Made by a program: the position numbers and the translations under genes. From assembly GCA_038888155.1 (NCBI GenBank), contig JAWAJB010000004.1:1-64000 (forward strand): a stretch of 64,000 nt of DNA, in the 5' to 3' direction. Positions 1-55,677 of this stretch are shown here, in pieces. The first letter of the stretch is position 1. Every line of letters starts with the position of its first letter. Origin of the DNA: Desulfurococcaceae archaeon. Lineage in GTDB: Archaea; Thermoproteota; Thermoprotei_A; Sulfolobales; Desulfurococcaceae. The notes under the pieces were generated by a model, which made no database searches, had not been told where the DNA came from, and saw only the letters and a program-made list of their open reading frames with translations.

Positions 1-90
1 GTCTGTGGATTACTTAGGTTGATGCCGCTTGATCAAAATTATTGTAGCTTGAATTTAATGCCAGATCTATCGGGAACGCCATGGGCGCGT
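1..90 (-). other. Probable 16S rRNA intron (5' part; continues beyond the window edge)
   Basis: After ...GUCGCCAG the expected CUCGUG is absent. It is replaced by ACGCGCCC and then AT-rich non-rRNA sequence. The junction fits half of a BHB motif (helix CGCC, bulge AG^A, inner helix CGCGCCC). Confidence 0.7.
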
Positions 91-1119
<1,029 letters not shown>

Positions 1120-1254
1120 ACGGCCGCGGGGCGGCCCGAGGGTTTTTAGGGCTGAATTAACCGAGCCTACCCCCGTCGGATCCGAGGCCAGAGAGGTAGA
1201 ACCTCCCCGCTTCTCGGGTCCCCATTTTGTAAGTGTCCGGAAATCTATTTCTAT

Positions 1255-1276
1255 TAGAGGGGTTTAAATACTTTAT
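1255..1276 (-). promoter_or_regulatory. rRNA operon promoter (BRE/TATA)
   Basis: The minus strand reads AAAGTATTTAAACCC, ~145 nt upstream of the 16S 5' end, and is followed by a GC-rich pre-rRNA leader. Confidence 0.7.
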
Positions 1277-1284
1277 GTCTATGT

Positions 1285-1405
1285 AAAACCGCGTGCCTTG
1301 TGGGATTGACCGTAGACACTTTGTACCCGCGGCAGGAGGCCGACTTTTCACTCACCGGGCTATGCCCGGCGTCTAAGCGACGCCGCCGCCGGGTTGCCGC
1401 GGGCT
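1285..1405 (-). ncRNA. Candidate structured ncRNA, H/ACA-like
   Basis: A 10-bp stem GCCCGCGGCA/UGCCGCGGGU is followed directly by ACA. It has an internal loop and branched apical stems, a TATA-like AAAGGCTAAAAG ~25 nt upstream, and a U-tract at the 3' end. Confidence 0.55.
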
Positions 1406-1526
1406 GTATATATTATTTGCACTGAGTGCTTTTAGCCTTTGCTTGCCTGAAAGCACTAGAGTCTCCAATGGCTAAATTATTGTGGGGAGTAAGTGGGATA
1501 AATGTAGGAAGTAAAATAAGAGATCG

Positions 1527-2267
1527 CTACGAACTAGTCACTATCTCAATAAATTCTGCAACGCCTTCGCCACTGGGCTTAGATAAAACTATAGAAACCC
1601 TTCGCTTTAGCTCCTCGTCTGCGTTGGAAACAGCTGCGGAAATGCCTATTGCGCCAAGGAAAGGTATATCCATCGTGCTGTCTCCTACGCCTGCGGCCTC
1701 GTCTGGTTCTATGCCAAGCCTCGATAGAACATATAGAACTGCGCCTTTTTTGTCTACATCTGCCGGCTTTACGTGCAGGGCGTATCCGCTATAATCAACT
1801 GTGAAGCCTGGATACTTTTCCTCTACATACTTCTTGAGGGTAGCCCAAATTTCCATTGCCCTACCTCGGTAGCCCTCTCGAGGCCTTAGCGCATACTCGT
1901 ACAGCCTGAAATAATTCTGCCAGCTGCTCTCTACGTAATCCCCAAAGACCTTGATAACATCTACAAATGGCTCCCTCGCTGACCTGCGCGCTAGCTCTAC
2001 TAACCCCCAATCGTCATGTAATATGAGGCAACCCGACTCGCCTATTGCTGGGCCATTTAAACCTATGTACCTTGATAGCCCTGCTACTACCGGTAAAGCG
2101 CTACTAGAGACAAGCGAAACAATTAAGCCTTTTCTAACAGCCTGCCTTACGGCATGCAACGCTGATACGCTCAGCTCGTACCCGCTTCTATTAACAGTTA
2201 GCGTTCCATCAATATCTAAGAACAGCGCTTTGACCTTTTTGTTCACAGTAAACACCAAGGGAATCAT
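1527..2267 (-). CDS. HAD-superfamily phosphatase (phosphoglycolate phosphatase, TA0175/Cof type)
   Basis: Motifs DIDGTLT, DKKGA and GDSTMDIPF. Confidence 0.88.
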   Translation of the reverse strand: MIPLVFTVNKKVKALFLDIDGTLTVNRSGYELSVSALHAVRQAVRKGLIVSLVSSSALPVVAGLSRYIGLNGPAIGESGCLILHDDWGLVELARRSAREPFVDVIKVFGDYVESSWQNYFRLYEYALRPREGYRGRAMEIWATLKKYVEEKYPGFTVDYSGYALHVKPADVDKKGAVLYVLSRLGIEPDEAAGVGDSTMDIPFLGAIGISAAVSNADEELKRRVSIVLSKPSGEGVAEFIEIVTSS

Positions 2268-2416
2268 TGACCTTGAAGATTATAAAGTCCACACGTGAGT
2301 CCCCGCTCTAAAGCAGCTCATTCTGTTGTCCATAAATGTGGGATTTTAAGCTATATTTATGCAACATGCTAAAATATAAAATCTCAACTCTACTTTAAAA
2401 TGGTTGAGGTGCTTAA

Positions 2417-3514
2417 ATGTCTGACTACATGAAGTTCGCCTTCATGTGCCAAGAGAGCAAGAGAAATGCAAGCGGAAGAGTAGCTGTAATAGGTGCAGGC
2501 CCAGCTGGGCTGTCGGCAACAGGATACCTCGTGTGTGAAGGCTATACTGTTGACATATACGACAAGCTACCCCTACCGGGGGGGTTGATGACCTTTGCTA
2601 TCCCCCCTTGGAGGATTCAACCCGAGAGAGTTCTAAGCGGGACTAGAGAGTTGGAGGAAAAATTCGGGGTAAAATACCTTCTTAAAACAAAGGTATTCTC
2701 CGGAGATCCGCTCCACGAGGAGGGGGACGACTTCGTTGAGAGAAATGTACACCTAGAGGATCTGCTCAACAGCTATGATCTCTTAATAGTAGCTACTGGG
2801 ACGTGGTCGTCTAAAATACCGAAGATGCCTGGCGCAGATTCCAAAGGAGTCCTAAGCGCTCTCGAGTACCTCTACGCGTGGAGAATTTACGAATATGGAT
2901 TTACCAGCAAGAAGCCTCACGCAAGCAAGAAGGCAATAGTAGTGGGAGCAGGGTTCAGTGCTGTAGATGCTGCCGAAAGGGCTCAGCGGAGCGGAGCAGA
3001 GGTGCACGTAGTTTACAGGAGAACAGTAAAGGAGGCCCCCGCGGGGATGTATGAAATAGAGAGACTTAGAAGGGAGGGAATAACGTTCATAGAGCTAGCA
3101 TCGCCTCTAGAAATAATTGCAGAGAACGACCACGTAAGCGCCGTTAAGTTCCAAAAAATGAAGTTGGGCCCAGCAGATGAAACTGGGAGACCGAGGCCAG
3201 TGCCCATACCTGGAGAGGAGTTCACAATTGAGGCGGACACAGTCATCTTCGCTACAGGTGAAACTCCCACGCCGCCGCTAGCCGGCGAGATATCTGAAAA
3301 GTTGGGCATTAAGCTGAACAGGGATGGAACAATAGCCGTGAACAACTTAATGCAGACTAGCGTAACTAAGCTATTTGCAGCTGGCGACGTATCCACGGGC
3401 CCGAGCAAAATTGGTCCCGCAATTAGAAGCGGTCTTAAAGCCGCTAGATCAATGCATCGTTGGTTCTACGCTAAAATAGGTAAACCCATTACAAGCACAA
3501 AGGTGATCTCATGA
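2417..3514 (+). CDS. GltD/SudA-like FAD/NAD(P)H-dependent oxidoreductase lacking the N-terminal Fe-S domain
   Basis: GAGPAG and GAGFSAVD Rossmann motifs, GGLMTFAIP, VYRR and FAAGD. Confidence 0.88.
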   Translation: MSDYMKFAFMCQESKRNASGRVAVIGAGPAGLSATGYLVCEGYTVDIYDKLPLPGGLMTFAIPPWRIQPERVLSGTRELEEKFGVKYLLKTKVFSGDPLHEEGDDFVERNVHLEDLLNSYDLLIVATGTWSSKIPKMPGADSKGVLSALEYLYAWRIYEYGFTSKKPHASKKAIVVGAGFSAVDAAERAQRSGAEVHVVYRRTVKEAPAGMYEIERLRREGITFIELASPLEIIAENDHVSAVKFQKMKLGPADETGRPRPVPIPGEEFTIEADTVIFATGETPTPPLAGEISEKLGIKLNRDGTIAVNNLMQTSVTKLFAAGDVSTGPSKIGPAIRSGLKAARSMHRWFYAKIGKPITSTKVIS

Positions 3515-4008
3515 ACGACCCAGCTGTAAGGTATATGCGGGTAATAGACTTAGGTAAGTGTATAGGATGTGGAGCGTGTGAAGCTGTCTGCGAATTTCTG
3601 CACGAGAGAGCAAACATAGTTGTATATAAAACAGCAGTAGGGCTTGAGATACCTGTCTCGTGTATGCACTGCGCCAAAGCTCCTTGTATTGAGGCATGTC
3701 CAACGGGCGCCATGACGAGGGATTCGTCTGGTGCAGTGTACGTTATTGAAAGCAGGTGTATAGGATGCCTAGCGTGCCTGTACGCGTGCCCATTTGGAAT
3801 ACCAGAGCTCGACAGGGCGAGTAAAACCGCTATAAAGTGCCACCTGTGCATGGACCTCAGGAAAGAAGGATTAGAGCCGGCCTGTAGCGCTATATGCCCA
3901 GCGCAGGCCATACTCTACGGAGAGGACATTGCAGTGTTTCAGGTAGCTAAGAAGAGGACAGCAGAAAGTATGGCCAAGGCAAGGTTTGAATACGAATTTC
4001 ACCGGTAG
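3511..4008 (+). CDS. 4x[4Fe-4S] electron-transfer subunit (HycB/FdhB-like)
   Basis: CIGCGACEAVC, CMHCAKAPCIEACP, CIGCLACLYACP and KCHLC...ACSAICP. Confidence 0.9.
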   Translation: MNDPAVRYMRVIDLGKCIGCGACEAVCEFLHERANIVVYKTAVGLEIPVSCMHCAKAPCIEACPTGAMTRDSSGAVYVIESRCIGCLACLYACPFGIPELDRASKTAIKCHLCMDLRKEGLEPACSAICPAQAILYGEDIAVFQVAKKRTAESMAKARFEYEFHR

Positions 4009-4020
4009 CGGGTATGGATA

Positions 4021-5526
4021 ATGAACGAACTACTTTTTTCGATGCCTATAGCGACATTAGCTTTACTGGTTGCCTCCCATCGCACGCCTAGGTTTAAGTA
4101 TAAAGCTCTAATTAAGCTTTCAGGCTACACTGTTTTTTCCTTGTTCATTGCACTTCTCTACTTCCTGGAGAGAATTGATGATTTCTCGCTGGTTCTGGGG
4201 ATATCCTTCATTCCTATATCACTTCTAGTCTCTCTATACACAATTCCTTACATGGAGAAAAACAAATACCCACCTAGGCTAGAAATAGCCATGGATTTGT
4301 TCTTGTCATCTATAATCTTTGCTTATGTTGCCCCCAGCTTTTTACTCATGGTAATAGCCTGGACTGCAGGCGAAATAGTGGGCTACGTGTTGATACGGCT
4401 GGGAGAGGAGCACTCGGTTGAGGGCTCTCTTACTTCATCTAGGGGGTTTATCTTCACGTCAACATTTACTTATGAGATATCGGTGTTCACCCTAATTACC
4501 TTAAGCATTATATTCACTACTACGAGCATAGGATTAAGCGAATTGATGAAGCCATTCACGTATCCTACATCAATAGCGATAATACCTGCAGTTATCATAC
4601 CACCCCTCATAGTTGGCTTCGTGACTAAAACAGCTAACATACCGCTCCACTTCTGGCTACCAAGCGCTCACTCGAGCGCGCCATCACCTGCGTCAGCGAC
4701 TCTGAGCGGTTTAATGGTCTCTCTTGGGTACTACGGGCTCTACAGGCTGGTTAATTTAATAGAGGTAGATCCCTACAGGGTCTACATAACCTGGTTCTTC
4801 ATCTTAATAGGGTTTCTTTCAATACTTTATGGAGGCCTTCAAGCCCTATCGGAGAGAGATGTTAAGAAGTTGCTTGCTTATTCAACTATAGCCACTAATG
4901 GATTCGTTAGCGCTGTATTTGGCCTTTACGTTCTGCAACCGTTGACAATAAACAAGTGGATATTGGCTATTAGCATACTTATGCACGCCGCTTATAAGAC
5001 AACGCTATTTTGTGAAGCAGGATTAGTTGAGATTGCACATGGCACGAGGTATATACACGGAGTTAGAGGGTTCATAAGAATAAGCCCTATCTCGTCTATT
5101 GGGAGCATTGCTGCTATTCTATCGCTACTAGGGGTGCCCGGCACAATTGGCTTTATAGCTAAGATCTTAGCTATATATAGTTCAATAAACGCTGGAGAGG
5201 TAGACCTGCTAATAACCACTGTTTCGCTGCTATCAATACTCTCCTACATTATCATTTCTGCCCTAATAGGATTGAAGTACATAAGGATACACTACAGCGA
5301 TTTCTCGCCTAAGGTAGAGGTGCTAGTATCTAATTTAGAGAGGGAAATACAGGCTCCAGTACTAGCGCTGGGATTACTCAATACGCTACTCAGCTTTATA
5401 GTCCTCGCGATTGGCGCCTATATCTACAGCTACATAATTGCGTTAATAACTCCTCTATCTGTCCTCATAACATATATAGCCTACACGAACTTAAGGGTCC
5501 AGAGCAGGGTTTGGGAGCATGGTTGA
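4021..5526 (+). CDS. Antiporter-like membrane subunit of group 4 hydrogenase (HyfB/NuoL/MrpA family)
   Basis: KTANIPLHFWLPSAHSSAPSPASATLSG and KKLLAYST; polytopic hydrophobic protein. Confidence 0.88.
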   Translation: MNELLFSMPIATLALLVASHRTPRFKYKALIKLSGYTVFSLFIALLYFLERIDDFSLVLGISFIPISLLVSLYTIPYMEKNKYPPRLEIAMDLFLSSIIFAYVAPSFLLMVIAWTAGEIVGYVLIRLGEEHSVEGSLTSSRGFIFTSTFTYEISVFTLITLSIIFTTTSIGLSELMKPFTYPTSIAIIPAVIIPPLIVGFVTKTANIPLHFWLPSAHSSAPSPASATLSGLMVSLGYYGLYRLVNLIEVDPYRVYITWFFILIGFLSILYGGLQALSERDVKKLLAYSTIATNGFVSAVFGLYVLQPLTINKWILAISILMHAAYKTTLFCEAGLVEIAHGTRYIHGVRGFIRISPISSIGSIAAILSLLGVPGTIGFIAKILAIYSSINAGEVDLLITTVSLLSILSYIIISALIGLKYIRIHYSDFSPKVEVLVSNLEREIQAPVLALGLLNTLLSFIVLAIGAYIYSYIIALITPLSVLITYIAYTNLRVQSRVWEHG

Positions 5527-7105
5527 TTACATTACATTAAAAATAATCTACTCAATATTGACATTGGCTATTGTGACTTTTGCATCTATATTGACAGACA
5601 GGTATCCAAGAGCTAGTAGAGCTATGAGAGTAGCGGGGTTCCTTGTTGTACCCTCTCTATTCATACTGTTAGGATTGGTGGAGCTACAGGGTTACCAAAT
5701 AGTGCTCACTTTATTAACTTCTGGCGTTGCAATAGGAATAAGCCTACATAATGAAGGTTACTACAGAGTAATATACGGGCTCGCGAGGTACTCTCAAATA
5801 ATAGTCGACACTATTTTAGCGTCTTTAATACTGCTGTTCTCCAGCACATTTCTCATTGAGCTTATCGTATATTGGTTCTTCATAGACATCACCGTGGCGT
5901 TCATCGCAATAACAATGGAACACGGCTCCGAGAACCTTCCAGTTGCCTCAACTTACATAGCCATGTGCATCGCCCCAAGCGATATCGCTCTACTGACTAT
6001 GTGGGCAATATTAGCTGGAGAGTTGGGCCTCTACAATTCGCTTCTTTTCCCACTTAACAAAGTAGCTTTGCAACCGTTGAGCTTGAACCCAGTAATATCA
6101 ACGATTATTCTCTTTGGCTTCGCTGTAAAACTAGGCCAGTTCCCGCTACACTCTTGGCTCCCCATAGTCCACGGCAAGGCTCCTAGCCACATATCGGCAA
6201 TATTAAGCGGTATAATCATCAAAATGGGAGCTTACGCCTTTTTAACGGCTCGCCAAATTTTCGCGTTTAATCCGATGGCGCTTTACATTATACTAGCACA
6301 GGGCATAATATCCACTATTTACGGTTCATTTGGGGCAGTGCTTCAGTCCCACATCAAGTGGATCCTCGCTTACAGCTCTGTCAGCTATGGAGGTGTTATT
6401 ACAACGCTATACGCTATAATGATGATACTAGAAGGATCTGCCCCGCTATACGCGTCAAGCGCTACTCACATCAACACGATAGGGTTACTAAATGCGCTGA
6501 TACTCATGGTTATCGTGTTCCACGCGCTGACTAAATCGCTTGCTTTTGTGAACTCTGGAATGGTGTATCAGCTTACAAACACCTACGACGTCTTTAAGCT
6601 CGGTTACTTATTTTACGTGTCGAGGGAGTCGAGCCTATCTGCATTCACTGTACTACTCAGCCTCACGGGCATACCTCCATCTGTTGGCTTCGTAGTAAAA
6701 ATTCTGCTAATATCTACAAGCCTATTAGTAGCCCAAGTAAACCTGCTGGGCCTCGTCCTAGCCATAGCGTTCATTCTATCCACTCTACTTTCAATTATCT
6801 ACGGGGCAAAGTACATGGGGGTCTACATCTCGACTCTGCCTAGAGTTCACCCTAGGACTGTTATAATACCAAAAGTAGAGTTGTACTCTGAAACTTACCT
6901 TAGCGTAGTATCGATTACAGTTCCTATGGCGTTCATATTATATCTCACGTTATTCCAGCAACAACCCGGCAACCTCGTAGGCATCATTGCAACACCTATA
7001 TACATAATTGCGCTTATGTTCTACGTTTATTCCTTCCTGCAAATATACAGCAAGAAGAGCGCAGAAGAGGACGTAAAGTACTGGCTTTCGGGTGTAGACT
7101 CTTGA
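5519..7105 (+). CDS. Second antiporter-like membrane subunit (HyfB/NuoM/MrpD family)
   Basis: KLGQFPLHSWLPIVHGKAPSHISAILSG, LAYSS, HALTKS and GIPP. Confidence 0.88.
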   Translation: MVDYITLKIIYSILTLAIVTFASILTDRYPRASRAMRVAGFLVVPSLFILLGLVELQGYQIVLTLLTSGVAIGISLHNEGYYRVIYGLARYSQIIVDTILASLILLFSSTFLIELIVYWFFIDITVAFIAITMEHGSENLPVASTYIAMCIAPSDIALLTMWAILAGELGLYNSLLFPLNKVALQPLSLNPVISTIILFGFAVKLGQFPLHSWLPIVHGKAPSHISAILSGIIIKMGAYAFLTARQIFAFNPMALYIILAQGIISTIYGSFGAVLQSHIKWILAYSSVSYGGVITTLYAIMMILEGSAPLYASSATHINTIGLLNALILMVIVFHALTKSLAFVNSGMVYQLTNTYDVFKLGYLFYVSRESSLSAFTVLLSLTGIPPSVGFVVKILLISTSLLVAQVNLLGLVLAIAFILSTLLSIIYGAKYMGVYISTLPRVHPRTVIIPKVELYSETYLSVVSITVPMAFILYLTLFQQQPGNLVGIIATPIYIIALMFYVYSFLQIYSKKSAEEDVKYWLSGVDS

Positions 7106-7386
7106 GCTACACAAAATCAAGTGCCCTCAGGTGGTTTGAAAGCATACTGGAGAACGCGAGGAGAAGAGCTCGCGTTACAACGGGCAGGATAACGCTTGGA
7201 AAAGTGCTTGAAAGCATGGTGAGGCTCGGCGATGTGGTTTTCCCCAAGCTAATGCACACGGCAGAGAGAGCCGCTTACGTAATAGGGAAGCTACAAGTTA
7301 CAATGATAGAGTCCATGATAACAGCTTCAATACTATACGGAATCTTGTTGTTAACCTTAGTCATGCTTGTAGTGGCGATGAGGTGA
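7102..7386 (+). CDS. Small membrane protein in the hydrogenase operon
   Basis: Overlaps the upstream stop (TTGA coupling) and has a C-terminal hydrophobic helix. Confidence 0.6.
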   Translation: MSYTKSSALRWFESILENARRRARVTTGRITLGKVLESMVRLGDVVFPKLMHTAERAAYVIGKLQVTMIESMITASILYGILLLTLVMLVVAMR

Positions 7387-7393
7387 ACTTAGC

Positions 7394-8293
7394 TTGGAAT
7401 TAATTCTCTTGTATGTTTTCTCAGCTGTAGCTACGCTAACAGGCGCTCTAATGCCAATTCTCCTAGACGGCGTTGAGCGCAAATTGAAAGCTGTAATACA
7501 GAGCAGAATAGGCCCCCCTATAACTCAAACTTTTTACGATATAGTGAAGCTTGCGGCAAAGGAGCACAAGTCAATGCACACAAAACCCTTTATTACAGTA
7601 TATTTCTCATCATACCTGCTCTGCATAGTAACATCAATGCTCTTAGCTACAATATACGCTATATTGCAGGACTTTGTAATATTAGCTCTAGCTTTGGCCT
7701 TTCTCGCCGTCTCGCTAGCTGCGCTAACAATAGTGCCTCTACTTGTTCCAAATCCTTTCAGCTATATTGGGGGAATGAGAGAAGTAGTGCTCGCGCTAAT
7801 AAACGAGTCTTCATTTATAGTCTCTATCCTAGTTTACACAACAGCGCTAAGAACAGTAAATAGCCAGCTTGTTAATCCGTTGTGGAGCATAATTACGTTG
7901 TTCCCTGTTACTACAGCTATGCTTATATCGGGGTACGCACTGACTGGTAGAGCCCCGTTTGATATATCAGAAGCAGAGCCTGAGCTGGCCTCTGGCACGC
8001 TTATAGAGTTCAGCGGCTACCTCCTCGCTCTCTACATTTACTCGAGCTTGCTGAAAAAGTTCTCCGCAAAGCTGTTTATAGCAGTTCTAATTACGTCTAG
8101 CGTAATCGACGGGGGGATCCCAGGGCTTATTACAGCTTATGCGCTAACACTCGTTATTTGGATTGCGTTCTCGGTTATATCTAGCACACTAGGACGATCT
8201 AGGGTTGACTTAGCACCTAGAGCTCTTACAAAGGTATATATAGCGCTTTTAGCTATATCTATAACAGGGTTATTGGTGTTTGCTTATGTCTAA
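7394..8293 (+). CDS. Hydrogenase membrane subunit (HycD/NuoH family)
   Basis: GVERKLKAVIQSRIGPP and RAPFDISEAEPELASG...EFSG. Confidence 0.92.
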   Translation: MELILLYVFSAVATLTGALMPILLDGVERKLKAVIQSRIGPPITQTFYDIVKLAAKEHKSMHTKPFITVYFSSYLLCIVTSMLLATIYAILQDFVILALALAFLAVSLAALTIVPLLVPNPFSYIGGMREVVLALINESSFIVSILVYTTALRTVNSQLVNPLWSIITLFPVTTAMLISGYALTGRAPFDISEAEPELASGTLIEFSGYLLALYIYSSLLKKFSAKLFIAVLITSSVIDGGIPGLITAYALTLVIWIAFSVISSTLGRSRVDLAPRALTKVYIALLAISITGLLVFAYV

Positions 8294-9911
8294 CAAGATC
8301 GATCCAATTGATAGCTACTCTTCTCTAATTAAAATGCATGGAGGAGCTATGCTGGTAGAGGACAATACTTTGCAAATCATTATACCAAAAGACAAGCTAC
8401 GTGATTTAGCCTCAGAGCTTTTCATCAAGCGGGGATGTGACTTCAGGACTTGCGTAGGAATTGATGAAGGCCCTATAAATGGACACCTTTCGTTAACTCA
8501 CATATTCACAGATAACAAACAAGGTTTGTACATAGCTGTAAAGGCTTACACCGAAACTACGAACCCTATTATGCCAAGCATTGCTGATGTGGTACCGGCT
8601 GCTGACTGGTGCGAGATGGAGGCAAGGGACTTACTAGGTATAGAGTTCGCTGGGAAAACATCGAGGAGATTTGTCCTGCCGCCGGGGTGGCCCGAGGGAG
8701 TTTACCCCCTTAGAAAGGACTTTTCATATAATTATAGGCCCGAGATAAGACCGGCTAGTGAGAGGATTGGAACAGGCGAGACAGGCGTACTGCCAATAGG
8801 GCCGTACCATCCAGCCCTCCACGAACCTGAATTTTTTGAGCTGTACGTAGAGGGTGAACGGGTAGTAGATGTAAAGTATAGGGGGTTCCACGTCCACAGA
8901 GGCATAGAAAAGCTAGCTGAGTCAAGGATGAATTACCAGCAAGTTAACTTTCTCGCAGAGAGAATTTGCGGGATTTGCGGTTTTGAACACAGCACATGCT
9001 ACGCCCTCGCTGTAGAGAAGGCTGCAGGTCTAGATGTGCCAGAGAGAGCTCAGTATATAAGAAGCATAGTGCTTGAAGTAGAGAGGCTTCATAGCCACCT
9101 GCTATGGCTTGGTGTAGCGTTCCACGTAGTTGGCTACGACACTGGCTTTATGCACATGTGGCGCATAAGAGAGGGAATAATGTACCTCTCCGAGCTTTTA
9201 ACCGGGAGCAGGAAAACTTACGGCATAAACCTAGTAGGCGGTGTTCGCAAAGATATAAGCGAAGAGAAGAAAGATAAAGTGCTTAAATCTCTAGGGGAGC
9301 TCTTAGGGGAGTTCAAAAAATTCACTGAAATTGCGTTGAGTGTACCGCAAGTTAGGAAAAGATTAACTGGAACTGGCGTGCTACCTAGAGAGGACGCAGT
9401 AAAGCTCTCGGTAGAGGGGCCTGTGGCGAGGGCATCGGGTATAAACAAGGACGCTAGGCGCGATCTCCCTTACGCTGCATATAAAAATGCTTCATTTAAT
9501 GTACCCGTCTACACTGAAGGGGATAACTTAGCTAGAGCTCTTGTCAGAGTAGATGAAGTATATGAATCAATGTCAATTATAGAACAGCTGCTAGACAGAA
9601 TGCCTCAGGGTCCTATTCGCCTAGAAGACTTCGAGATCCCAGAGGGAAGAGTTGGGATCCAAGTAGTTGAAGCTCCTAGAGGAGGCGATATTCACTTCGT
9701 TTTAACTGGAAGAGGTAGGCCGTATAGATGGAGAGTTCGGGCGCCTACATACAATAATATACCGGCATTGGGGGTTATGCTTAAAGATCAACCTCTAGCA
9801 GATGCCCCGTTAACAGTGGCGAGCATAGACCCATGCTTTTCCTGCACGGATAGAATAGCTGTTGTAAGGGGCAATGGTAGAATCGAGTACTTATCAATTA
9901 TGAGGCGTTAA
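8286..9911 (+). CDS. Group 4 [NiFe]-hydrogenase large subunit (HycE-like, NuoC/D fusion)
   Basis: Intact Ni-ligand motifs ERICGIC and DPCFSCTDR, plus a C-terminal extension; also GPYHP and EAPRG. Confidence 0.93.
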   Translation: MSNKIDPIDSYSSLIKMHGGAMLVEDNTLQIIIPKDKLRDLASELFIKRGCDFRTCVGIDEGPINGHLSLTHIFTDNKQGLYIAVKAYTETTNPIMPSIADVVPAADWCEMEARDLLGIEFAGKTSRRFVLPPGWPEGVYPLRKDFSYNYRPEIRPASERIGTGETGVLPIGPYHPALHEPEFFELYVEGERVVDVKYRGFHVHRGIEKLAESRMNYQQVNFLAERICGICGFEHSTCYALAVEKAAGLDVPERAQYIRSIVLEVERLHSHLLWLGVAFHVVGYDTGFMHMWRIREGIMYLSELLTGSRKTYGINLVGGVRKDISEEKKDKVLKSLGELLGEFKKFTEIALSVPQVRKRLTGTGVLPREDAVKLSVEGPVARASGINKDARRDLPYAAYKNASFNVPVYTEGDNLARALVRVDEVYESMSIIEQLLDRMPQGPIRLEDFEIPEGRVGIQVVEAPRGGDIHFVLTGRGRPYRWRVRAPTYNNIPALGVMLKDQPLADAPLTVASIDPCFSCTDRIAVVRGNGRIEYLSIMRR

Positions 9912-29805: not shown

Positions 29806-29929
29806 ATAATCACCCCATGTGTCTATTCCTTATAGCTATTAAAAACCTTAAATAGTTTAAGAGATGCGATCAAATAAATTACATGTAGTAAAGTTATTTA
29901 TAGGCACTGTAAAAGTAAGTATTCAATGG

Positions 29930-30014
29930 GCGGGGGTGCCCGAGCTTGGCCAAAGGGGGCGGACTCAAGATCCGCTGGTGTAGGCCTGCGTGGGTTCGAA
30001 TCCCACCCCCCGCA
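29930..30014 (+). tRNA. tRNA-Leu(CAA)
   Basis: Cloverleaf with long variable arm; anticodon arm GCGGA-CUCAAGA-UCCGC; T-loop GGUUCGAAUCC. Confidence 0.97.
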
Positions 30015-30422
30015 TGAAGCAAACTCACGGTTTCGCTGGAAGTTATTGGCTTTGTACTTGGCCAATTGAAGGGATAAGCGTTGCTTAGGCGACTGACAAT
30101 TATGTGCTTTGATAGCAAATTGAGAGAGATGCTTCGCCGCGATCAATCACGTGCTTATTTTTCTGCGCTAACCCACCTTAGACGTAGAGCTGGCCTTTAA
30201 TCCTTAATTACTAAAGGTACTCAAATCACCAGCAGCAGGGTTCGCGCCAAGAGAAGGGTCGAAATTGCTCTTTCTAGGGGGAACGGCTTTTAGTTATCCT
30301 TGCGGATAGATATCGATTTAAGAGCGCAAGGAGTTAGGGCAAAACAGGAGCATTAACCTTTTACTGAATAAAATGTGGCTGAAATTCGCTTTAAACTTTG
30401 CCCTTCAATCGGCTCAATAGAG

Positions 30423-31397
30423 CTAAGCTGAGAACTCGGCTAGCAAGTTCGATACGGCTATTTTGATTCTCCTTAACTTTTCGAAGCCGATCTCGTATAA
30501 TTTATCAACTGGTGCGACACCCCTCATTCCTCCAAAACCGTCATCAGCAGAAACGAGGTCTATGTTAAGACCGACTCTTTTAACTATGTCTCTGAGAAGG
30601 TAACTCAGTTCATCGACGGATTCAGTTGCTAAGCTCTTGCTACTAGCAACTCCTGGCGCAAGCCTCTTTGAATGACACTCTATTAGTTCTTTGTTTAATA
30701 TCCCTAAGTTATCTCTCATATCGTAAAATTCTAGGTTAACTACATCTAGGTTCTCTGCGCCCATCAGAGAGTGGAAAAGTAGCTTAGATACTCTACCACA
30801 CACGTGTATACAGTGTTCCCCCCCAAGGCCGCTGTATACGTAGTCTACGTAATGAGTAATGTCTTCGGGTGTATAGCCTAGGAGAAGCTTTCTAGCTCCC
30901 ACGATAACCGAGAGCATGGGCTCATCTATGAAAAGCACATTGTAGCCAATGCTTTCTAGGTACTTTAAGTTTCTTTTTACGTACTCAAAAAGCGATTCAA
31001 GTATTCCTTTATCAGCTAGCGCCGTTGCAGAGAAGTCATCCCGTTTAGGTGAAATTAGTATATTGCTTGCCAGCGTGAAAGCGCCAGTTACTGGACCCCT
31101 CATGTAGTTAAAAGACCCCCTTGCAATGCGCGCAAATTCCTCGGCTTCCCACACAGTGGTTTGAATTGCAGGGGGTTTCCTGAGGGCATCGATGTCCTTG
31201 ACTAAATACATTCCACCGACATCTACGAGTATGCCCTCCTCAATGTATGGGGAGATAAACATCTTTACGAAGTCCCTTAGCTGAGGGTAAGCGGGTACAT
31301 CCACGCCTGCGCTAATGTAGCCTTCGAGGGATTTCCTCACGTACTCCTGTGTTGGATCAAAGGGAAAGCTGCCAACGTGGCTAACTCTTATAGTCAT
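30423..31397 (-). CDS. Single-barrel ('core') MetE-like Zn methyltransferase / methionine synthase
   Basis: HVGSFP, YPQLRD, RGPVTGAFTLA, IDEP and HVCG. The C-terminal motif is SADDG where (P)DCG is expected. Confidence 0.8.
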   Translation of the reverse strand: MTIRVSHVGSFPFDPTQEYVRKSLEGYISAGVDVPAYPQLRDFVKMFISPYIEEGILVDVGGMYLVKDIDALRKPPAIQTTVWEAEEFARIARGSFNYMRGPVTGAFTLASNILISPKRDDFSATALADKGILESLFEYVKRNLKYLESIGYNVLFIDEPMLSVIVGARKLLLGYTPEDITHYVDYVYSGLGGEHCIHVCGRVSKLLFHSLMGAENLDVVNLEFYDMRDNLGILNKELIECHSKRLAPGVASSKSLATESVDELSYLLRDIVKRVGLNIDLVSADDGFGGMRGVAPVDKLYEIGFEKLRRIKIAVSNLLAEFSA

Positions 31398-31475
31398 TCA
31401 CGACACCCCTTTTATTGCTTATAAGATTCTAAGTTGCTTTATAGACTAAAAACGCTTATTGGTTATTCTTAGCGG

Positions 31476-32144
31476 GTGTGTAACTTGAGCAAGTCCGATA
31501 TACTTGATAGAATAAAGAATTGTCTAGTCGAGCTCAACAGGGAGTGTACTATTAGCAGTGTAACAGAGGCACTAAAGATTGGCGTAACAGCAACTGAAGT
31601 TGCCCTGTCGTCGATGTCATCAGCTATGGGAGAGATTGGTCGACTATACGAATCTGGGGATTACTTCATTGCTGAACTACTTGAGGCGTCCTCTATTTTC
31701 AAGGAAGCAATGAGCATCCTGAAGCCGAAACTTAACGAGGAGACATCCAAGTATAGACAACGTGTAAAGGCGAAGGTCGTTATAGGAACGGTGAAGGGGG
31801 ATATACATGACATAGGCAAATCGCTTGTCGCCACAATTCTTGAGGCATCTGGCTATGAAGTAATAGACCTGGGGGTAGATGTACCAGTTGAGAAGTTTTT
31901 AGAGGCCTGCATTAAGCACGAGCCCGAGGTATTGGCGTTGAGCGCCTTGCTAACAACGACTGCCAAGTACATGAAGACCATAGTTGAGGAACTAGTAAAA
32001 CGTGGATTGAGGGAAAAAGTGAAAGTGGTAGTGGGAGGCGCAGCTGTAAGCGAGGTTTTCGCTAAGGAAATTGGCGCGGATGGATGGGCCCCAAACGCTA
32101 TTGAAGCTGTTAAATTAATCAATTCGCTTCTAAATAGAAACTAG
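31476..32144 (+). CDS. Corrinoid (B12-binding) methyl-carrier protein, MtaC/MttC type
   Basis: Cap domain plus GTVKGDIHDIGK, DLGVDVP, SALLTTT and VGGA. Confidence 0.93.
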   Translation: MCNLSKSDILDRIKNCLVELNRECTISSVTEALKIGVTATEVALSSMSSAMGEIGRLYESGDYFIAELLEASSIFKEAMSILKPKLNEETSKYRQRVKAKVVIGTVKGDIHDIGKSLVATILEASGYEVIDLGVDVPVEKFLEACIKHEPEVLALSALLTTTAKYMKTIVEELVKRGLREKVKVVVGGAAVSEVFAKEIGADGWAPNAIEAVKLINSLLNRN

Positions 32145-32153
32145 TGAGTAAAA

Positions 32154-33083
32154 TTAAGTTTTGCCTGGTAGGATTGGCTGATTGAATAGCTTTTGAATCT
32201 TCTTAAGAAGTCCCTTCATTGGGTGGTCATCTGCTAGCTTAAACCCTTTTCTCCTCAGATTGTAACCTAGCAAGCCGTCGACTATCGCTATTATTGGTGC
32301 TACGTATTTAACCCTACTTAGAGGCCCTATCATTATGAAGTCAGCGCCTTTCATCCTTAGGTATGCAGCTACCCCTCCGTGAGAGCCGTATACCTCGTCA
32401 ACTGTAACAGTGCTCTTATTCACATTACCTAGGGCATTAGCAGGCGCGCACCCAGCTGGGGCATCATATAGTGATTTAAACTTCTCTATCGCCTCACCGC
32501 ATATAGCTATACTTCCAGGGTCTATGGCGACAAAATCCACAAACCTGAGCTCTATTCCAGACTCTCTAGCTAGAGGTAAAAGCTTTTCATCAAGTAAGCT
32601 AACTCTATTAACCCAGTCAAGAGACTCGTAAGGATTGCGCGGATTAAATGCAATGAGTACGGCCTTTCCCAAGCGCGATTCGCGGAGAGCTTCTATTTCA
32701 TCAACTGGAGAATCAACGTATAATCCGTTGGCTATAGCGTATTCAGTTAGCCCTAGATCACGCGAGACTTTGTAGCTTTCCGCTCTGATCATCGGATCAG
32801 CAGAGTCTAGGAATATAGGTATATTGAATTCGGCCAAGAAAGGTAATACTCTCTCTATAGACTCTATAGATGGCAACACTACATCTAAGCCAAGCACTAG
32901 TTTATACTCCGTTGTTATTGAAATTGCCTCCTCGATTTTTTGCTTTAGTGTCTCTCTATCAAAGTCGCCTTTAGCGCTCAACAGAGTTTTATCCCCATGG
33001 TAGAATATGGTTGGTACGATCCATGTTGGGCACTCTCCGTGCAGACCTCCTATGCAGTACTTGCCGACCTTGTATGTAGCCAA
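32154..33083 (-). CDS. MtrH/MtgA-family methyl-pterin:corrinoid methyltransferase
   Basis: IGGLHGECPT...TIFYHG...KGDFDR (cf. MtrH GGQPGEYPT...IFY...GxFD), GCAPAN and GADFIMIGP. Confidence 0.85.
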   Translation of the reverse strand: MATYKVGKYCIGGLHGECPTWIVPTIFYHGDKTLLSAKGDFDRETLKQKIEEAISITTEYKLVLGLDVVLPSIESIERVLPFLAEFNIPIFLDSADPMIRAESYKVSRDLGLTEYAIANGLYVDSPVDEIEALRESRLGKAVLIAFNPRNPYESLDWVNRVSLLDEKLLPLARESGIELRFVDFVAIDPGSIAICGEAIEKFKSLYDAPAGCAPANALGNVNKSTVTVDEVYGSHGGVAAYLRMKGADFIMIGPLSRVKYVAPIIAIVDGLLGYNLRRKGFKLADDHPMKGLLKKIQKLFNQPILPGKT

Positions 33084-33150
33084 CTCTACAGCACCAGAAG
33101 CGATTATTAAGTACGGCTATTTATGTATATCTAAAATTTAAACTGAGAGA

Positions 33151-33876
33151 GTGATAATCGTGGAGAAGATCTTAGAAATTCCCCCCAGAAGCAAGAAGTT
33201 TCTCGACAAAGTCATCGAAAATGTAAAAGGCTTATACGAATCGCTCTTCGTTCCCTGCGCGCCAGGGGGGATACCGATGATCGATTGCTTCGCAGCAGGT
33301 GCTTACATATCTTCCAGGTACAACTATGGTATTTTTTCTAGCATAAGGACATACGATTGTGCGCTAAATCACGTTCTCGAAAAGGCAAAAACGGCTTTAG
33401 ACTTCGGATTCCGAGGGATTTTAATCACTAAGGGTGACCCACCCCAGTATGGAAAGGGCCTAAAGGAATCTAGCACGGAAAGCGCCATTAGCTTTATACG
33501 AGAGGCTGGACTAAATATTAATTTAGGAATAGTCATTAGTCTGAGGTTCCAACTAGAGGATATTCGCAGGAGATTGCGGAACCTCCAACCTGACTTTGCT
33601 TTTATTATGCGATATCATCAAGGACAATGCGATGAGCAGAAATTTAAAGAAGTGGTAAGAGAAGCAAGGGATATAGGGACTAAAACCTATGTGTTTATAC
33701 TGCTTGGCACAGAGAAGAACATTCTTGTGTTCAACAAATTAAAACAACCATACATTCATTTGAATGAGTTCGGAAATACTGTAAAGTGGCTCAACAGTGT
33801 TATAGATGGAGTAGTGGTATCCTCGCCACTAGATTTCGAGAGCGCTATTCACTCCGCTAAGGAGCTAATAGCTTAG
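33151..33876 (+). CDS. Methylenetetrahydrofolate reductase-like (MetF fold) protein
   Basis: E..P at the N-terminus, PCAPGG, IRTYD and GILITKGDPP, matching the MTHFR T.RD and L.L.GDPP motifs. Confidence 0.7.
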   Translation: MIIVEKILEIPPRSKKFLDKVIENVKGLYESLFVPCAPGGIPMIDCFAAGAYISSRYNYGIFSSIRTYDCALNHVLEKAKTALDFGFRGILITKGDPPQYGKGLKESSTESAISFIREAGLNINLGIVISLRFQLEDIRRRLRNLQPDFAFIMRYHQGQCDEQKFKEVVREARDIGTKTYVFILLGTEKNILVFNKLKQPYIHLNEFGNTVKWLNSVIDGVVVSSPLDFESAIHSAKELIA

Positions 33877-33888
33877 ATCAATAATTCA

Positions 33889-34929
33889 CTATTTCTTTAC
33901 GTATTTACCTCGAATAGGTATATTCTCTCCACACCTCCTGCACCTATATTTATTACCAGAAAGATCCGCGTCGAATTTTAGGACTTTAAATCCGTACCTG
34001 AAAATTAGAGTTTTTCCACACCTAGGACACTTTGTAGACTCCGCTTCAGAGTCCATTATATTTCCCACGTATACGTATTTCAAACCCTGCCTTGATGCGT
34101 ACTCCTTAATTGATTCCAATTTTTCAAGGGGGGTTGCTGGCTCGTGCCACCTGTGAGCAGGGTAGTATCTATTTATGTGAATGGGTACATCTGGGCCAAG
34201 GTATTTTAAGTGACTGTCTATAATCCACTCATAGCACTCTCTGAAATCATTCGTGTTCGTGACCACGAGGTAGACTATCTCCACGTGAGCCCCTAAATTT
34301 AAAGCTAGCCGAGCGTTCTTGAATACTGCATCGTAGTCTAAGCCCACAAGGGCTCTTTTGATGTGCGGACAGCCCTTTATGCTCGCAGAGAAGCCATCTA
34401 CTCCTGCCGTTATTACTGCTTCGAGAGATCTAGCCGTAAAATACATATTTGTAACCATCATTGAGTAAAGGCCTTGCTTAACGCCTAACTCTGTAACATC
34501 GATCACGTAGTCTAAGTTCGTTATCGGCTCATTGAAGCTAGCTGAAAGACCTCTATCATTATTTGAGATCGCTGTCCTTATGAGGATCTCTGGAGCTACT
34601 GTTTCATGATCCGGCTTTGGCTTCTTAAAGCTCAAGTAGTCATTTTGACACCAAGGGCAATAGAAATTGCATCCATAATTGCTGTATGTTAAGGCCGTTG
34701 ACCCAGGCCAGTAGTGATAAAGTGGCTTTGCCTCAATTGGACGGCTTTCAACAGCACTCAATTTACCATAACCTATGTGGTAAACCTCGCCCTTAATGTT
34801 TACATAATTCCCGCACACACCTGCATAACCCTCCCTTAATATACACCTTCTTTCGCAAACGATACATCTCGTTGTTCCATACGAGGCTTCGTAAAACCTA
34901 GCCCTAACGGGGGTACCCAGATCGACCAC
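33889..34929 (-). CDS. amrS: AmmeMemoRadiSam-system radical SAM enzyme (PFL-activase-like)
   Basis: CIVCERRC, PIEAKPLYHYWPG, GCNFYCPWCQN and YVYVGN..CPRCG. Confidence 0.88.
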   Translation of the reverse strand: MVDLGTPVRARFYEASYGTTRCIVCERRCILREGYAGVCGNYVNIKGEVYHIGYGKLSAVESRPIEAKPLYHYWPGSTALTYSNYGCNFYCPWCQNDYLSFKKPKPDHETVAPEILIRTAISNNDRGLSASFNEPITNLDYVIDVTELGVKQGLYSMMVTNMYFTARSLEAVITAGVDGFSASIKGCPHIKRALVGLDYDAVFKNARLALNLGAHVEIVYLVVTNTNDFRECYEWIIDSHLKYLGPDVPIHINRYYPAHRWHEPATPLEKLESIKEYASRQGLKYVYVGNIMDSEAESTKCPRCGKTLIFRYGFKVLKFDADLSGNKYRCRRCGENIPIRGKYVKK

Positions 34930-35270: not shown

Positions 35271-35379
35271 CGCCGGGGGCGGGATTTGAACCCGCGTACC
35301 CCTTTATGGGGTAGTGGGTCTCCCTAAAGATGTCGCTGGAACTCGAGCCCACCCCCTTAGGCCGCTCGGGCACCCCGGC
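35271..35379 (-). tRNA. tRNA-Ser(CGA) with a 22-nt intron (35320-35341) at position 37/38
   Basis: GCCGGGG acceptor, GUGGG-CUCGAG[intron]A-CCCAC, long variable arm, T-loop GGUUCAAAUCC; relaxed BHB. Confidence 0.9.
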
Positions 35380-36317: not shown

Positions 36318-36390
36318 TAGCCGGGCGGGGATTCGAACCCCGGTCACGGGGGCCAGAGCCCCGCATCCTTGGCCGCTAGACGACCCGGCT
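36318..36390 (-). tRNA. tRNA-Gln(CUG)
   Basis: A1-U72 acceptor AGCCGGG; anticodon arm CGGGG-CUCUGGC-CCCCG. Confidence 0.96.
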
Positions 36391-36488: not shown

Positions 36489-36562
36489 GGGCCCGTAGCT
36501 CAGCCCGGTAGAGCGGCGGGCTTTTAACCCGTAGGTCCCGGGTTCAAATCCCGGCGGGCCCG
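36489..36562 (+). tRNA. tRNA-Lys(UUU)
   Basis: GGGCCCG acceptor; anticodon loop CUUUUAA; T-loop GGUUCAAAUCC. Confidence 0.97.
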
Positions 36563-36641: not shown

Positions 36642-38336
36642 TTACTTTTTACTTGCGCTGAGAAACTCCCTGTATGCCTCTCTGTATATTTCAGATGACT
36701 CCAGTTTATATCTGTCCCTAATGTATTTTTTCGCTATTTTCTCCTTAGGTAAGTTGTGCTTTGCTGCATATTCCTCGATTGTTAAGCTGTAATTTCTATG
36801 AACTTTGTCCCTGTAAATATCATCAAATATGTTAAAAGCACAGAATGGAATGAGCCTGCCATCTGGCACTGCATAGTGGATGTTGCATCGCTGGACTCTC
36901 TGTATATCGTAATTGTAGAGGTCCATGAAGTGCATTTGACCAATAAATAGAAGCTTATAGTGTAGCTCTCCCAATGCCTCATAATCCCGCTTTATAATAA
37001 TGTTGAGTAAGATCTTGTATATATCAATTCCCTCAGGTGCCTTATCCTGGTCTATGAATTTCCTTATATTGTACAGAAGCTTCACTCCCGTTACTACCCT
37101 GCTAGAGCCGCTAATTAGCTCTACCCATTTCTCGCGAAGGTATTCAAGCAAACCATCGATATCTATGAACTTAGTTATGGGAATTAGCCTAACTGATTCG
37201 CCTTTCTTCTCCACGTAGATGTATGTGCCTACTCCACATACTGGGTGGTTAACCATCTCGAACTTAAATTCCCCACTAAATCCCTCTATGAATCTCGAGA
37301 ATAGAGCGCTGGCGTTAACTGGGAACCAGGCTTCTCTCGATATTTCTCCATTAGTCTGTTCTTCGAGTAACTTGACTACATCTGGTATAGTAACTCTGTA
37401 TTTCTCTCTCTCGTGCTTCTTCATCTCGCCAGTCAAGCTAACTGGTTGGAAATTAACAGATCGAACTACATCTATGTTCTTGGCCGCAAACTTAACTATT
37501 GAGCCGAGCTCATGAGTGTTATAGCCCTGCAAAACTACTGGAACGAGGACAACGCTAGTTATACCTGCTGCCCTGAAAACTTCAAATATATATGGCACCT
37601 CCCAGTGGTTTTTCCAATTAGTTTGGGGAGAGACTCCATCAAAACTTAAGTAAACAGTGTTTAGACCGCTTAACCTAAGATCTCTAGCGTACTTAACAGC
37701 TCCCTCTGGATCTTCTAAGTACATTGCCGCGAACTTCAATCCATTTGTGTTTAATTGTATATGCCTAACGCCTTCCTCCCTTAGGAGTTTGACCACGTCC
37801 AATAAGTCTTCTCTTAAGAGGGGTTCTCCTCCTGTGATCTGAATTGCCGTGGTAACTCCCTGCTTTTGAATGCTCTTGACCATTTCTTTTATCTGCTCAA
37901 GCGTAGGTTCATAAACGTAGCCTGCTACCTCAGAATAAAAGAAGCAGTACCAACAACTTAAGTCGCACCTGTTTGTCACAACTAGGTTGACAAGAGCTGT
38001 GTGTTGTTTGTGCATTGGGCACAAGCCGCAGTTAAAAGGACAAGTTGTCTTCGTTGACGTATAAACGTGCCTTGTGCCTCTGCCCTCTTCCTGAAACTTT
38101 TGTATTCTCTTGTAGAGCTCTACATCTCCGTAGTATAGCTCTTCTATTTCGCCATGCTCTGGGCATACTCTACGTATGTAGACTTTCCCGTCTCGCTCAA
38201 CGATGATAGCAGGTAATACTCTATAGCATGTTGGACATATGCTGAGAGTAAGCGAAAGCATTTCTTCATTTCCCCTAAGCGCTGAGATTACGTATGATAT
38301 CTCGCCGGGATGTTTAACGCTCATTGAGTTCACCAC
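36642..38336 (-). CDS. tes: Tetraether lipid synthase (GDGT macrocyclase), radical SAM
   Basis: N-terminal SICPTC...CPEHG, CPFNCGLCPMH, TNRCDLSCWYC, and C-terminal RVQRCNIHY...IPFC. Confidence 0.88.
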   Translation of the reverse strand: MVNSMSVKHPGEISYVISALRGNEEMLSLTLSICPTCYRVLPAIIVERDGKVYIRRVCPEHGEIEELYYGDVELYKRIQKFQEEGRGTRHVYTSTKTTCPFNCGLCPMHKQHTALVNLVVTNRCDLSCWYCFFYSEVAGYVYEPTLEQIKEMVKSIQKQGVTTAIQITGGEPLLREDLLDVVKLLREEGVRHIQLNTNGLKFAAMYLEDPEGAVKYARDLRLSGLNTVYLSFDGVSPQTNWKNHWEVPYIFEVFRAAGITSVVLVPVVLQGYNTHELGSIVKFAAKNIDVVRSVNFQPVSLTGEMKKHEREKYRVTIPDVVKLLEEQTNGEISREAWFPVNASALFSRFIEGFSGEFKFEMVNHPVCGVGTYIYVEKKGESVRLIPITKFIDIDGLLEYLREKWVELISGSSRVVTGVKLLYNIRKFIDQDKAPEGIDIYKILLNIIIKRDYEALGELHYKLLFIGQMHFMDLYNYDIQRVQRCNIHYAVPDGRLIPFCAFNIFDDIYRDKVHRNYSLTIEEYAAKHNLPKEKIAKKYIRDRYKLESSEIYREAYREFLSASKK

Positions 38337-55592: not shown

Positions 55593-55677
55593 TGCGGGGG
55601 GTGGGATTCGAACCCACGCAGGCCTACGCCATCGGGTTCTGAGCCCGACCCCTTTGACCTAGCTCGGGCACCCCCGC
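55593..55677 (-). tRNA. tRNA-Leu(CAG)
   Basis: Cloverleaf nearly identical to the Leu(CAA) gene; anticodon arm UCGGG-CUCAGAA-CCCGA. Confidence 0.95.

Follow-up and report, generated by a model that had tools for sequence, protein, structure and literature searches.

A four-gene cluster in a Desulfurococcaceae archaeon that may encode a modular, corrinoid-dependent methionine synthase

We analyzed a 64,000-nucleotide stretch of DNA (hereafter, the window) from a hot-spring Desulfurococcaceae archaeon, comprising positions 1 to 64,000 of contig JAWAJB010000004.1 in assembly GCA_038888155.1, and focused on four adjacent genes at 30423-33876. In the reading that we favor, they encode a corrinoid-dependent methionine synthase of modular make-up, analogous in function to MetH but built from separate and mostly non-homologous polypeptides; we put the probability of this reading at about 70%. 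The proposal draws on gene identities, folds, residues, synteny, co-occurrence, and a search for other methionine synthases that failed; from these we infer every catalytic step and its direction. An initial annotation, made from the sequence alone, had described four genes in two divergent pairs. Our listing of open reading frames (ORFs) recovered four intact ORFs at exactly the same coordinates, and all four identities hold. The features, with lengths in amino acids (aa) or base pairs (bp), are as follows.

30423..31397, minus strand: ORF1, single-barrel core-MetE-like methyltransferase, 324 aa
31398..31475, no strand: divergent spacer between the MetE-like and corrinoid genes, 78 bp, AT-rich with TATA-like boxes (read from the sequence)
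31476..32144, plus strand: ORF2, MtaC/MtgC-type corrinoid (cobamide-binding) carrier protein, 222 aa
32154..33083, minus strand: ORF3, MtrH/MtgA-family pterin:corrinoid methyltransferase, 309 aa
33084..33150, no strand: divergent spacer between the MtrH-like and MTHFR-like genes, 67 bp, AT-rich (read from the sequence)
33151..33876, plus strand: ORF4, short divergent MTHFR-fold protein, 241 aa

The two middle genes, encoding the corrinoid and MtrH-like proteins, are convergent and lie 9 bp apart. The spacers at 31398..31475 and 33084..33150 are presumed to be bidirectional promoter regions.

In the proposed pathway, the short MTHFR-fold protein would reduce the methylene-H4-pterin made by SHMT to methyl-H4-pterin, where the pterin may be a folate or a methanopterin-like carrier. 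With this methyl-H4-pterin, the MtrH/MtgA-like enzyme would methylate the MtaC-type corrinoid protein in its Co(I) form, and the single-barrel MetE-like enzyme, using a metal-activated homocysteine thiolate, would take the methyl group from CH3-Co(III) to yield methionine and Co(I). For most relatives of this cluster we envisage a further component, an in-cluster [2Fe-2S]/ASKHA ATPase of the RACo type, that would re-reduce accidentally formed Co(II); RACo is the reductive activator of corrinoid proteins. Comparative genomics lends support to the route from CH2-pterin through CH3-pterin and CH3-corrinoid to homocysteine that the initial annotation had suggested.

Searches with family hidden Markov models matched the B12-binding and MtrH domains, gave a weak match for Meth_synt_2, and left the MTHFR identity to be established through a structural model. 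The MetE-like protein falls far below the cut-offs of the NCBIfam models NF002119, NF004712, and NF003317 (73.6 versus 258, 34.4 versus 387, and 22.1 versus 406), and many of its relatives carry a precomputed PF01717 assignment. A profile of 11 orthologues (A2) matched Thermotoga maritima MetE (E = 2.2e-5) with the IDEP, HxC, E, and DCG motifs aligned. The AlphaFold model (mean pLDDT 94.4) is a single (beta/alpha)8 barrel that has no N-terminal barrel for binding folate. Its best structural matches are the C-terminal barrels of MetE proteins and the single-barrel protein 3rpd; the listed Foldseek matches at ranks 1-30 are all of MetE type, including the single-barrel 3rpd and 1ypx, with the methylcobamide-type methyltransferase 4ay7 first appearing at rank 31 and UroD lower still.

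We then compared residues across 72 MetE-like sequences, namely the window protein and those of 71 loci described below. S10, Q39, D158, H198, C200, E223, and D285 are conserved wherever the sequences cover them. Whether this is a zinc enzyme, as first annotated, has a divided answer: of the four proposed Zn ligands, H198, C200, and E223 line up with those of T. maritima MetE, but the fourth position is occupied by Asp286 instead of Cys. In the text available of Price et al. (PMC7857596), a Ser/Gln/Asp trio is given as the homocysteine-binding residues of MesA and MesC. We matched S10 and Q39 to this trio by motif position and by that paper's description; the IDEP motif aligns with MetE. On sequence grounds, we propose that S10, Q39, and D158 bind homocysteine and that the MetE-like protein is a methylcorrinoid:homocysteine methyltransferase.

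The corrinoid protein matches the Pfam families B12-binding (98 bits) and B12-binding_2, the helical cap (50.9 bits), and carries a DxHxxG His-on motif in which D109, H111, and G114 are invariant in alignment A3. Its closest solved relative is 1y80 (E = 5.6e-43), with the GDxHDIGK motif aligned, and it also matches residues ~643-859 of MetH (E = 2.8e-41) as well as solved MetH chains. Scores remain below the equivalog cut-offs for MtgC (188.1 versus 370), MtbC (164.8 versus 350), and MtaC (117.5 versus 450).

The MtrH-like protein matches Pfam MtrH (PF02007) at 100 bits, versus a cut-off of 22.8, over residues 4-279, and stays below the NCBIfam cut-offs (144.6 bits for NF002142, 111.8 versus 550 for MtgA, and 92.3 versus 271.4 for TIGR01114). 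Its closest solved relative is MtgA of Desulfitobacterium hafniense (6sj8, E = 4.2e-31), followed by the MtrH subunits 8z9u and 9qtp. We propose from these matches that it acts as a CH3-H4-pterin:Co(I)-corrinoid protein methyltransferase. Membership in an Mtr complex was considered and rejected, given that no MCR was found and the neighbors are not mtr genes (MtrA was not searched genome-wide).

The 241-aa protein has no Pfam or NCBIfam match, and PF02219 does not hit it at E ≤ 0.01. The initial annotation had called it MTHFR-like, and its structure bears this out: the model (mean pLDDT 90.9, pTM 0.89) is an eight-stranded beta/alpha barrel, and MTHFR/MetF accounts for all 21 of the Foldseek rows listed at the top (ranks 1-42), at E of ~1e-9 and TMq of 0.65-0.76. 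A profile search of the PDB also returned MTHFRs for all of its top 8 matches, but weakly (E = 0.15-0.35), and hhalign of the short family against the MTHFR encoded in the cluster of genome G031 gave a probability of 68% (E = 4.6e-5) over 89 columns. Among the ESM Atlas neighbors of the protein are 'MTHFR domain-containing' clusters of Thermoproteota. Residues E9, R66, D69, G95, D96, P98, and others are invariant across 8 orthologues (A1). In an alignment through intermediates, E9 and D96 fall on Glu28 and Asp120 of E. coli MetF, which we take to be the catalytic residues of that enzyme. The segment aligned to the flavin-binding stretch of E. coli MetF resembles archaeal cluster MTHFRs rather than the E. 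coli protein. With its fold and these residues in hand, we propose that the 241-aa protein is a methylene-H4-pterin reductase.

Relatives of this short family were found by profile and whole-genome searches; single-sequence searches with the 241-aa protein yielded no relative in genome contigs and 2 matches in a word-indexed protein search. Run against 1.84 billion representatives, the family profile recovered 353 relatives at E ≤ 0.001, and 74 when the limit was set at E ≤ 1e-30. We sampled 38 of them; PF02219 matched 25 of these at E ≤ 0.01 and 12 above its 24-bit cut-off, and the sample includes bona fide MTHFRs at 94-108 bits. The short family is linked to the cluster but is not exclusive to it. 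A match at G021:C22:30465-31151 (locus L005, E = 2.8e-38) comes with no MetE-like, corrinoid, MtrH, or RACo match, and the family therefore also works outside the system. Divergent short copies also occur within ~2 kilobases (kb) of RACo genes, with the MetE-like gene elsewhere, in four genomes (G003:C51:43189-45658, G005:C9:2379-4851, G038:C12:73078-75542, and G039:C5:19141-21643).

We next asked how the cluster is distributed, counting genome-level co-occurrence in 41 related genomes. Strong MetE-like matches (E ≤ 1e-49) and strong corrinoid matches (E ≤ 1e-41) were found in the identical 22 genomes. MtrH matches (17/41) and RACo matches (19/41) all fell within these 22 MetE-like carriers. 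Six relatives had a strong PF02219 match, and none of them matched the short MTHFR-like family.

At the level of gene neighborhoods, we extracted 71 loci from GTDB species genomes, each consisting of a MetE-like gene with flanks of at most 7 kb, and scored them with our own profiles. Most come from Desulfurococcales, including complete genomes of Thermogladius and metagenome-assembled genomes of Staphylothermus, Ignisphaera, Zestosphaera, and Pyrodictiaceae, and a few are from Bathyarchaeia. The same corrinoid type as in the window ('type I') is present in 27 loci, a more divergent corrinoid protein in 15 more, and none within the flank in the remaining 29. The type-I loci encode RACo in 26 of 27 cases, MtrH in 20, and the short MTHFR-like protein in 20; a Pfam-level MTHFR takes the place of the short gene in 4, none has both, and 3 have neither. 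All roles are present in 18 of the 27, and several of the incomplete loci stop at the edge of a contig or are short contigs. The RACo gene in most relatives' clusters encodes 530-565 aa, with the domains Fer2, RACo_middle, and RACo_C_ter. G031 and G035 lack the short gene; there, the gene between RACo and MtrH encodes a 371-aa MTHFR (PF02219, ~66 bits, with an N-terminal DUF5981).

In a midpoint-rooted FastTree phylogeny of 66 sequences (6 of the 72 had <250 aligned residues and were left out), type-I MetE-like proteins group together, with the MTHFR-type clusters forming a subgroup beside the short-gene type. Other arrangements give further support to the links among these genes: an MtrH-like gene adjoins a divergent short MTHFR-like gene in G028, G038 has the order corrinoid-x-MetE-like-MtrH, and MtrH adjoins the corrinoid gene in G003. 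The four roles thus co-occur and are syntenic in other genomes, as expected if they form one module, and we rejected a chance neighborhood because the arrangement is syntenic across genera. The 'complete' route of the initial annotation proved too strong for this genome: all four gene identities hold, but the RACo found in 26 of the 27 related loci was not found here.

A subset of loci bears on the direction of methyl flow. In these sister clusters, a MetE-like gene and RACo occur with the divergent corrinoid protein, and a methyltransferase of the MttB family (262.7 bits) or URO-D family (61.7 bits) replaces MtrH, its gene sitting between the MetE-like and corrinoid genes. They are found in Zestosphaera and other Desulfurococcaceae (L059:6821-11789 and L061:7001-11942, with similar clusters in L058-L064, L066, L067, L069, L070, L082, and L083). 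MttB-type enzymes load corrinoid proteins from methylated amines. For a sister cluster to make up a full donor-carrier-acceptor set, the MetE-like protein must therefore be the acceptor-side methyltransferase, which places that protein on the acceptor side; in the window cluster, MtrH would then sit on the donor side, with the MTHFR-like protein supplying CH3-pterin. The sister clusters may methylate homocysteine in a corrinoid-dependent way, with quaternary amines or other methylated compounds as the methyl source.

The host genome offers no obvious alternative source of methionine synthase activity. PF01717 has no match at E ≤ 0.001 in this genome, and the sole genome match to three NCBIfam methionine-synthase models is the window protein itself, far below their cut-offs. 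We also searched five genomes (this one, G012, G004, G019, and G031) for the MetH homocysteine domain PF02574, the MetE N-domain PF08267, and the corrinoid iron-sulfur protein CoFeSP (PF03599), each of which was found in none of the five. Other methionine synthases thus appear to be lacking, with the homocysteine domain, the MetE N-domain, trusted-level MetE, MesA, or MesC matches, and CoFeSP all undetected, which fits the role proposed for the cluster. SHMT and AdoHcy hydrolase are present in all five, and methylene-pterin (the C1 source) and homocysteine are therefore available. The description of the host as non-methanogenic is borne out by the lack of MCR_alpha in all 21 genomes searched, this one included. 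For MesB and MesC, CoFeSP has been proposed to donate the methyl group; we rejected it as the donor here because PF03599 was found in none of the five genomes.

A six-frame scan of the whole assembly with our own profiles found one MetE-like, one MtrH, one short MTHFR-like, and two corrinoid genes, and no RACo or standard MTHFR. The second corrinoid gene lies on contig C38 (L106), where positions 680-9488 hold an MttB-family gene (680-2158, 342.8 bits), the corrinoid gene (2148-2813, minus strand), and an Opp/Dpp-type ABC transporter operon. The assembly, with 97.4% completeness and 6.4% contamination, has 2.42 Mb, against 1.2-1.5 Mb in the rest of the genus. This oversized bin, its contamination, the G+C content of C38 (38%, versus 45% for the window contig), and the presence of two CobS copies suggest that the assembly may mix two organisms.

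Several observations weigh against the methionine synthase reading. The MetE-like protein reaches only 19 bits against Pfam Meth_synt_2, for which the cut-off is 21, and 73.6 bits versus 258 for the NCBIfam model PRK00957 'methionine synthase'. The 241-aa protein has neither the E. coli-type Gln of the 'TQFFF' region nor the MetF helical insertion preceding the last strand, and its family occurs in 22 of the 41 genomes, 17 of them MetE-like carriers and 5 non-carriers. MtrH/MtgA-type enzymes are reversible, and MtgA, the closest solved relative, runs in the corrinoid-to-folate direction. CobS was found in only 2 of the 5 genomes, this assembly (two copies, on small contigs) and G031, so most carriers probably import cobamide. 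RACo was not found in this 97.4% complete genome using Pfam and our own profile in six frames. Finally, position 286 is Cys in 68 of the 69 sequences that cover it and Asp in the window protein alone among them, and the window MetE-like protein is the longest terminal branch of the family tree. By the last two measures, the system could be altered or weakened in this lineage.

In one alternative reading, the cluster is a methyl hub. The corrinoid protein would be loaded mainly by substrate-specific methyltransferases, such as the MttB encoded on C38, and would unload to homocysteine through the MetE-like enzyme or, through the MtrH-like enzyme, to H4-pterin as MtgA does; the MTHFR-like protein would oxidize CH3-pterin for catabolism, so that it and MtrH would run in reverse at least part of the time. 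We consider this unlikely. The direction of MtgA, a methylcorrinoid:tetrahydrofolate methyltransferase, would fit it, as would the assembly's MttB-family gene, whose neighbors are the second corrinoid gene and genes for an Opp-type ABC transporter, the pairing of MetE-like genes with MttB or URO-D methyltransferases in related clusters, and the divergent short MTHFR-like copies near RACo genes in G003, G005, G038, and G039. Type-I clusters, however, encode no donor methyltransferase besides MtrH, and C38 possibly derives from another organism, as its G+C content, the bin size, and the contamination indicate.

Another reading, to which we give a still lower probability, holds that in the lineage of this genome (G000) and its nearest relative G012 the module has ceased to function as a methionine synthase, through relaxed selection or a changed function. 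The 19 RACo-bearing genomes among the 22 MetE-like carriers include neither G000 nor G012, and Asp286, which G012 shares in the A2 alignment, is seen in these two genomes only, in a protein that in the window forms the longest branch. Against this, all four ORFs are intact in both genomes despite protein identities of 38-66%, and have therefore been kept through a long divergence, with the remaining catalytic and substrate residues all retained. The Asp286 codon was confirmed by translation and is unchanged in contigs from at least 3 other runs (of which X3 and X4 may be one data set). A zinc site of His, Cys, and Asp also has a precedent, as it supports thiol alkylation in protein farnesyltransferase. 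We regard the version in these two genomes, with Asp as fourth metal ligand and no RACo, as a derived form of the system.

Least probable of all is a fully reversed, catabolic pathway, in which the MetE-like protein demethylates methionine or another methyl-thioether and passes the methyl group through the corrinoid protein and MtrH to H4-pterin for oxidation by the MTHFR-like protein: MtrH/MtgA enzymes are reversible, corrinoid-dependent thioether demethylation exists in methanogens, and the hosts are presumably peptide fermenters with access to methionine, but the MttB and URO-D sister clusters would on this view contain two donors and lack an acceptor, our searches turned up no other methionine synthase even though AdoHcy hydrolase makes homocysteine, and methyl transfer to homocysteine is thermodynamically strongly favored.

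Returning to the modular methionine synthase, we also put forward, tentatively and at somewhat short of even odds, a wider version of it. Desulfurococcales and some Bathyarchaeia may have a fifth core methionine synthase family that uses a dedicated corrinoid shuttle and an interchangeable methyl source, and that includes a minimal 240-aa reductase and a RACo-free variant with a His/Cys/Asp site. One version would draw on the C1 pool through the MtrH-like enzyme and the 240-aa methylene-pterin reductase, for which the usual flavin site is possibly dispensable. In its sister versions, MttB- or URO-D-type enzymes would supply methyl groups taken from quaternary amines or other methylated compounds, as a corrinoid-dependent counterpart of betaine-homocysteine methyltransferase.

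The proposed chemistry, from CH3-pterin through Co(I)/CH3-Co(III) to metal-activated homocysteine, would be that of MetH overall, and the corrinoid protein has the same B12-binding_2 plus B12-binding DxHxxG module. Unlike in MetH, the modules are separate polypeptides, the homocysteine module is of MetE type rather than S-methyl_trans (PF02574, 0/5), the pterin module belongs to the MtrH family, an MTHFR-like gene lies in the cluster, and the relatives would reactivate cobalt with an ATP-dependent RACo instead of an AdoMet-binding domain. MtgABC, the glycine-betaine methyltransferase system of D. hafniense, is likewise a three-component corrinoid system, and its MtrH-family methyltransferase and MtgC-like protein are the best solved or curated relatives of ours. 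It differs in its second methyltransferase, which is of the MttB family rather than MetE-like, and in the direction of flow, betaine to corrinoid to folate as opposed to the pterin to corrinoid to thiol proposed here; our proteins also score below the MtgA and MtgC equivalog cut-offs. Bacterial and eukaryotic MTHFRs (MetF) and the MetV-fused MTHFRs of related clusters share the barrel fold of the 241-aa protein, which keeps the equivalents of Glu28 and Asp120, and a Pfam-level MTHFR fills the role in 4 loci. In addition to the missing helical insertion and 'TQFFF' Gln, the 241-aa protein is ~55 residues shorter than MetF and has no DUF5981/MetV-like domain.

Core-MetE enzymes themselves have been described. 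According to the available text of two reports, they accept methyl groups from methylcobalamin in vitro, and corrinoid proteins are their proposed donors in vivo, with links drawn to MtrA or CoFeSP, of MesA to methanogens, and of MesB and MesC to the Wood-Ljungdahl pathway (Deobald et al. 2020, PMC7005905; Price et al. 2021, PMC7857596). The MetE-like protein shares with MesA-D, as described there, a single MetE-type barrel without the folate-binding N-domain. We set it apart from them by published description and by model scores: its hosts have neither MCR nor CoFeSP, it is paired with a dedicated MtaC-type protein that comes with MtrH, RACo, and MTHFR genes of its own, and it scores far below the three NCBIfam models, which we take to represent Mes families. 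Public annotations already name such proteins 'methionine synthase', often 'B12-independent'.

A published precedent comes from Ca. Methanomethylicus mesodigestum, where a CoP-MtrH pair has a metE homologue as its neighbor and a possible anabolic role was raised (Loh et al. 2021, PMC7886697). There, the same three gene families are co-localized in a member of the Thermoproteota. The host is a putative methanogen, however, and as far as the available text of that paper goes, the case occupies one sentence and a supplementary figure, with no link to RACo or MTHFR, no analysis of distribution, and no experiment (PMC7886697). In a survey from 2009, 1 of 4 Desulfurococcales is recorded as having 'other' B12 methyltransferases, with no further detail in the part available (PMC2667541). 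We found no paper describing the full cluster in Desulfurococcales, its RACo or MTHFR components, or the MttB swap, in a search that did not cover subscription journals. The earlier remark that this combination had not been characterized in Crenarchaeota therefore stands for the cluster as a whole, but not for the CoP-MtrH-metE neighborhood, which was noted in 2021 (PMC7886697).

The cluster is flanked by unrelated housekeeping genes, namely those for Dph2, an AmmeMemoRadiSam radical SAM enzyme, AlaXM, and the tetraether lipid synthase Tes. The Tes gene (36642-38336, minus strand) scores 709 bits, above the cut-off of 450. The AmmeMemoRadiSam-type gene (33889-34929, minus strand) scores 186.6 bits, below the cut-off of 220, and its position next to the MTHFR-like gene is kept only within the genus (G012, G004). 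No riboswitch was found near the cluster, as Rfam matches in the window at gathering thresholds are limited to rRNA and tRNAs. A partial archaeal 16S rRNA gene at 1-1118 (minus strand), truncated at the edge of the window, explains why the first 2 kb has 58% G+C. The tRNA match at 35271-35379 (minus strand) spans 109 bases and exceeds the window's other tRNA matches in length, pointing to an intron-containing tRNA; the others lie at 29930-30014, 36318-36390, 36489-36562, and 55593-55677. An 82-aa ORF at 29898-30146 (minus strand) overlaps the first of these on the opposite strand and is unlikely to be a gene.

In published work, folate-independent core methionine synthases are associated with corrinoid proteins of methanogenesis or of the Wood-Ljungdahl pathway. 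If our reading is correct, fermentative hyperthermophiles without either pathway would have a self-contained third solution for making or recycling methionine, a MetH-like route assembled from unrelated modules with a built-in activase and reductase. The 'B12-independent' label in public annotations would need to be corrected, and a cobamide requirement would be predicted for the host organisms. A further outcome is the definition of a large family of short MTHFR-like proteins that lacks annotation, with 353 cluster representatives at E ≤ 0.001. Finally, the four or five small thermostable proteins of the proposed system would form a directly reconstitutable set.

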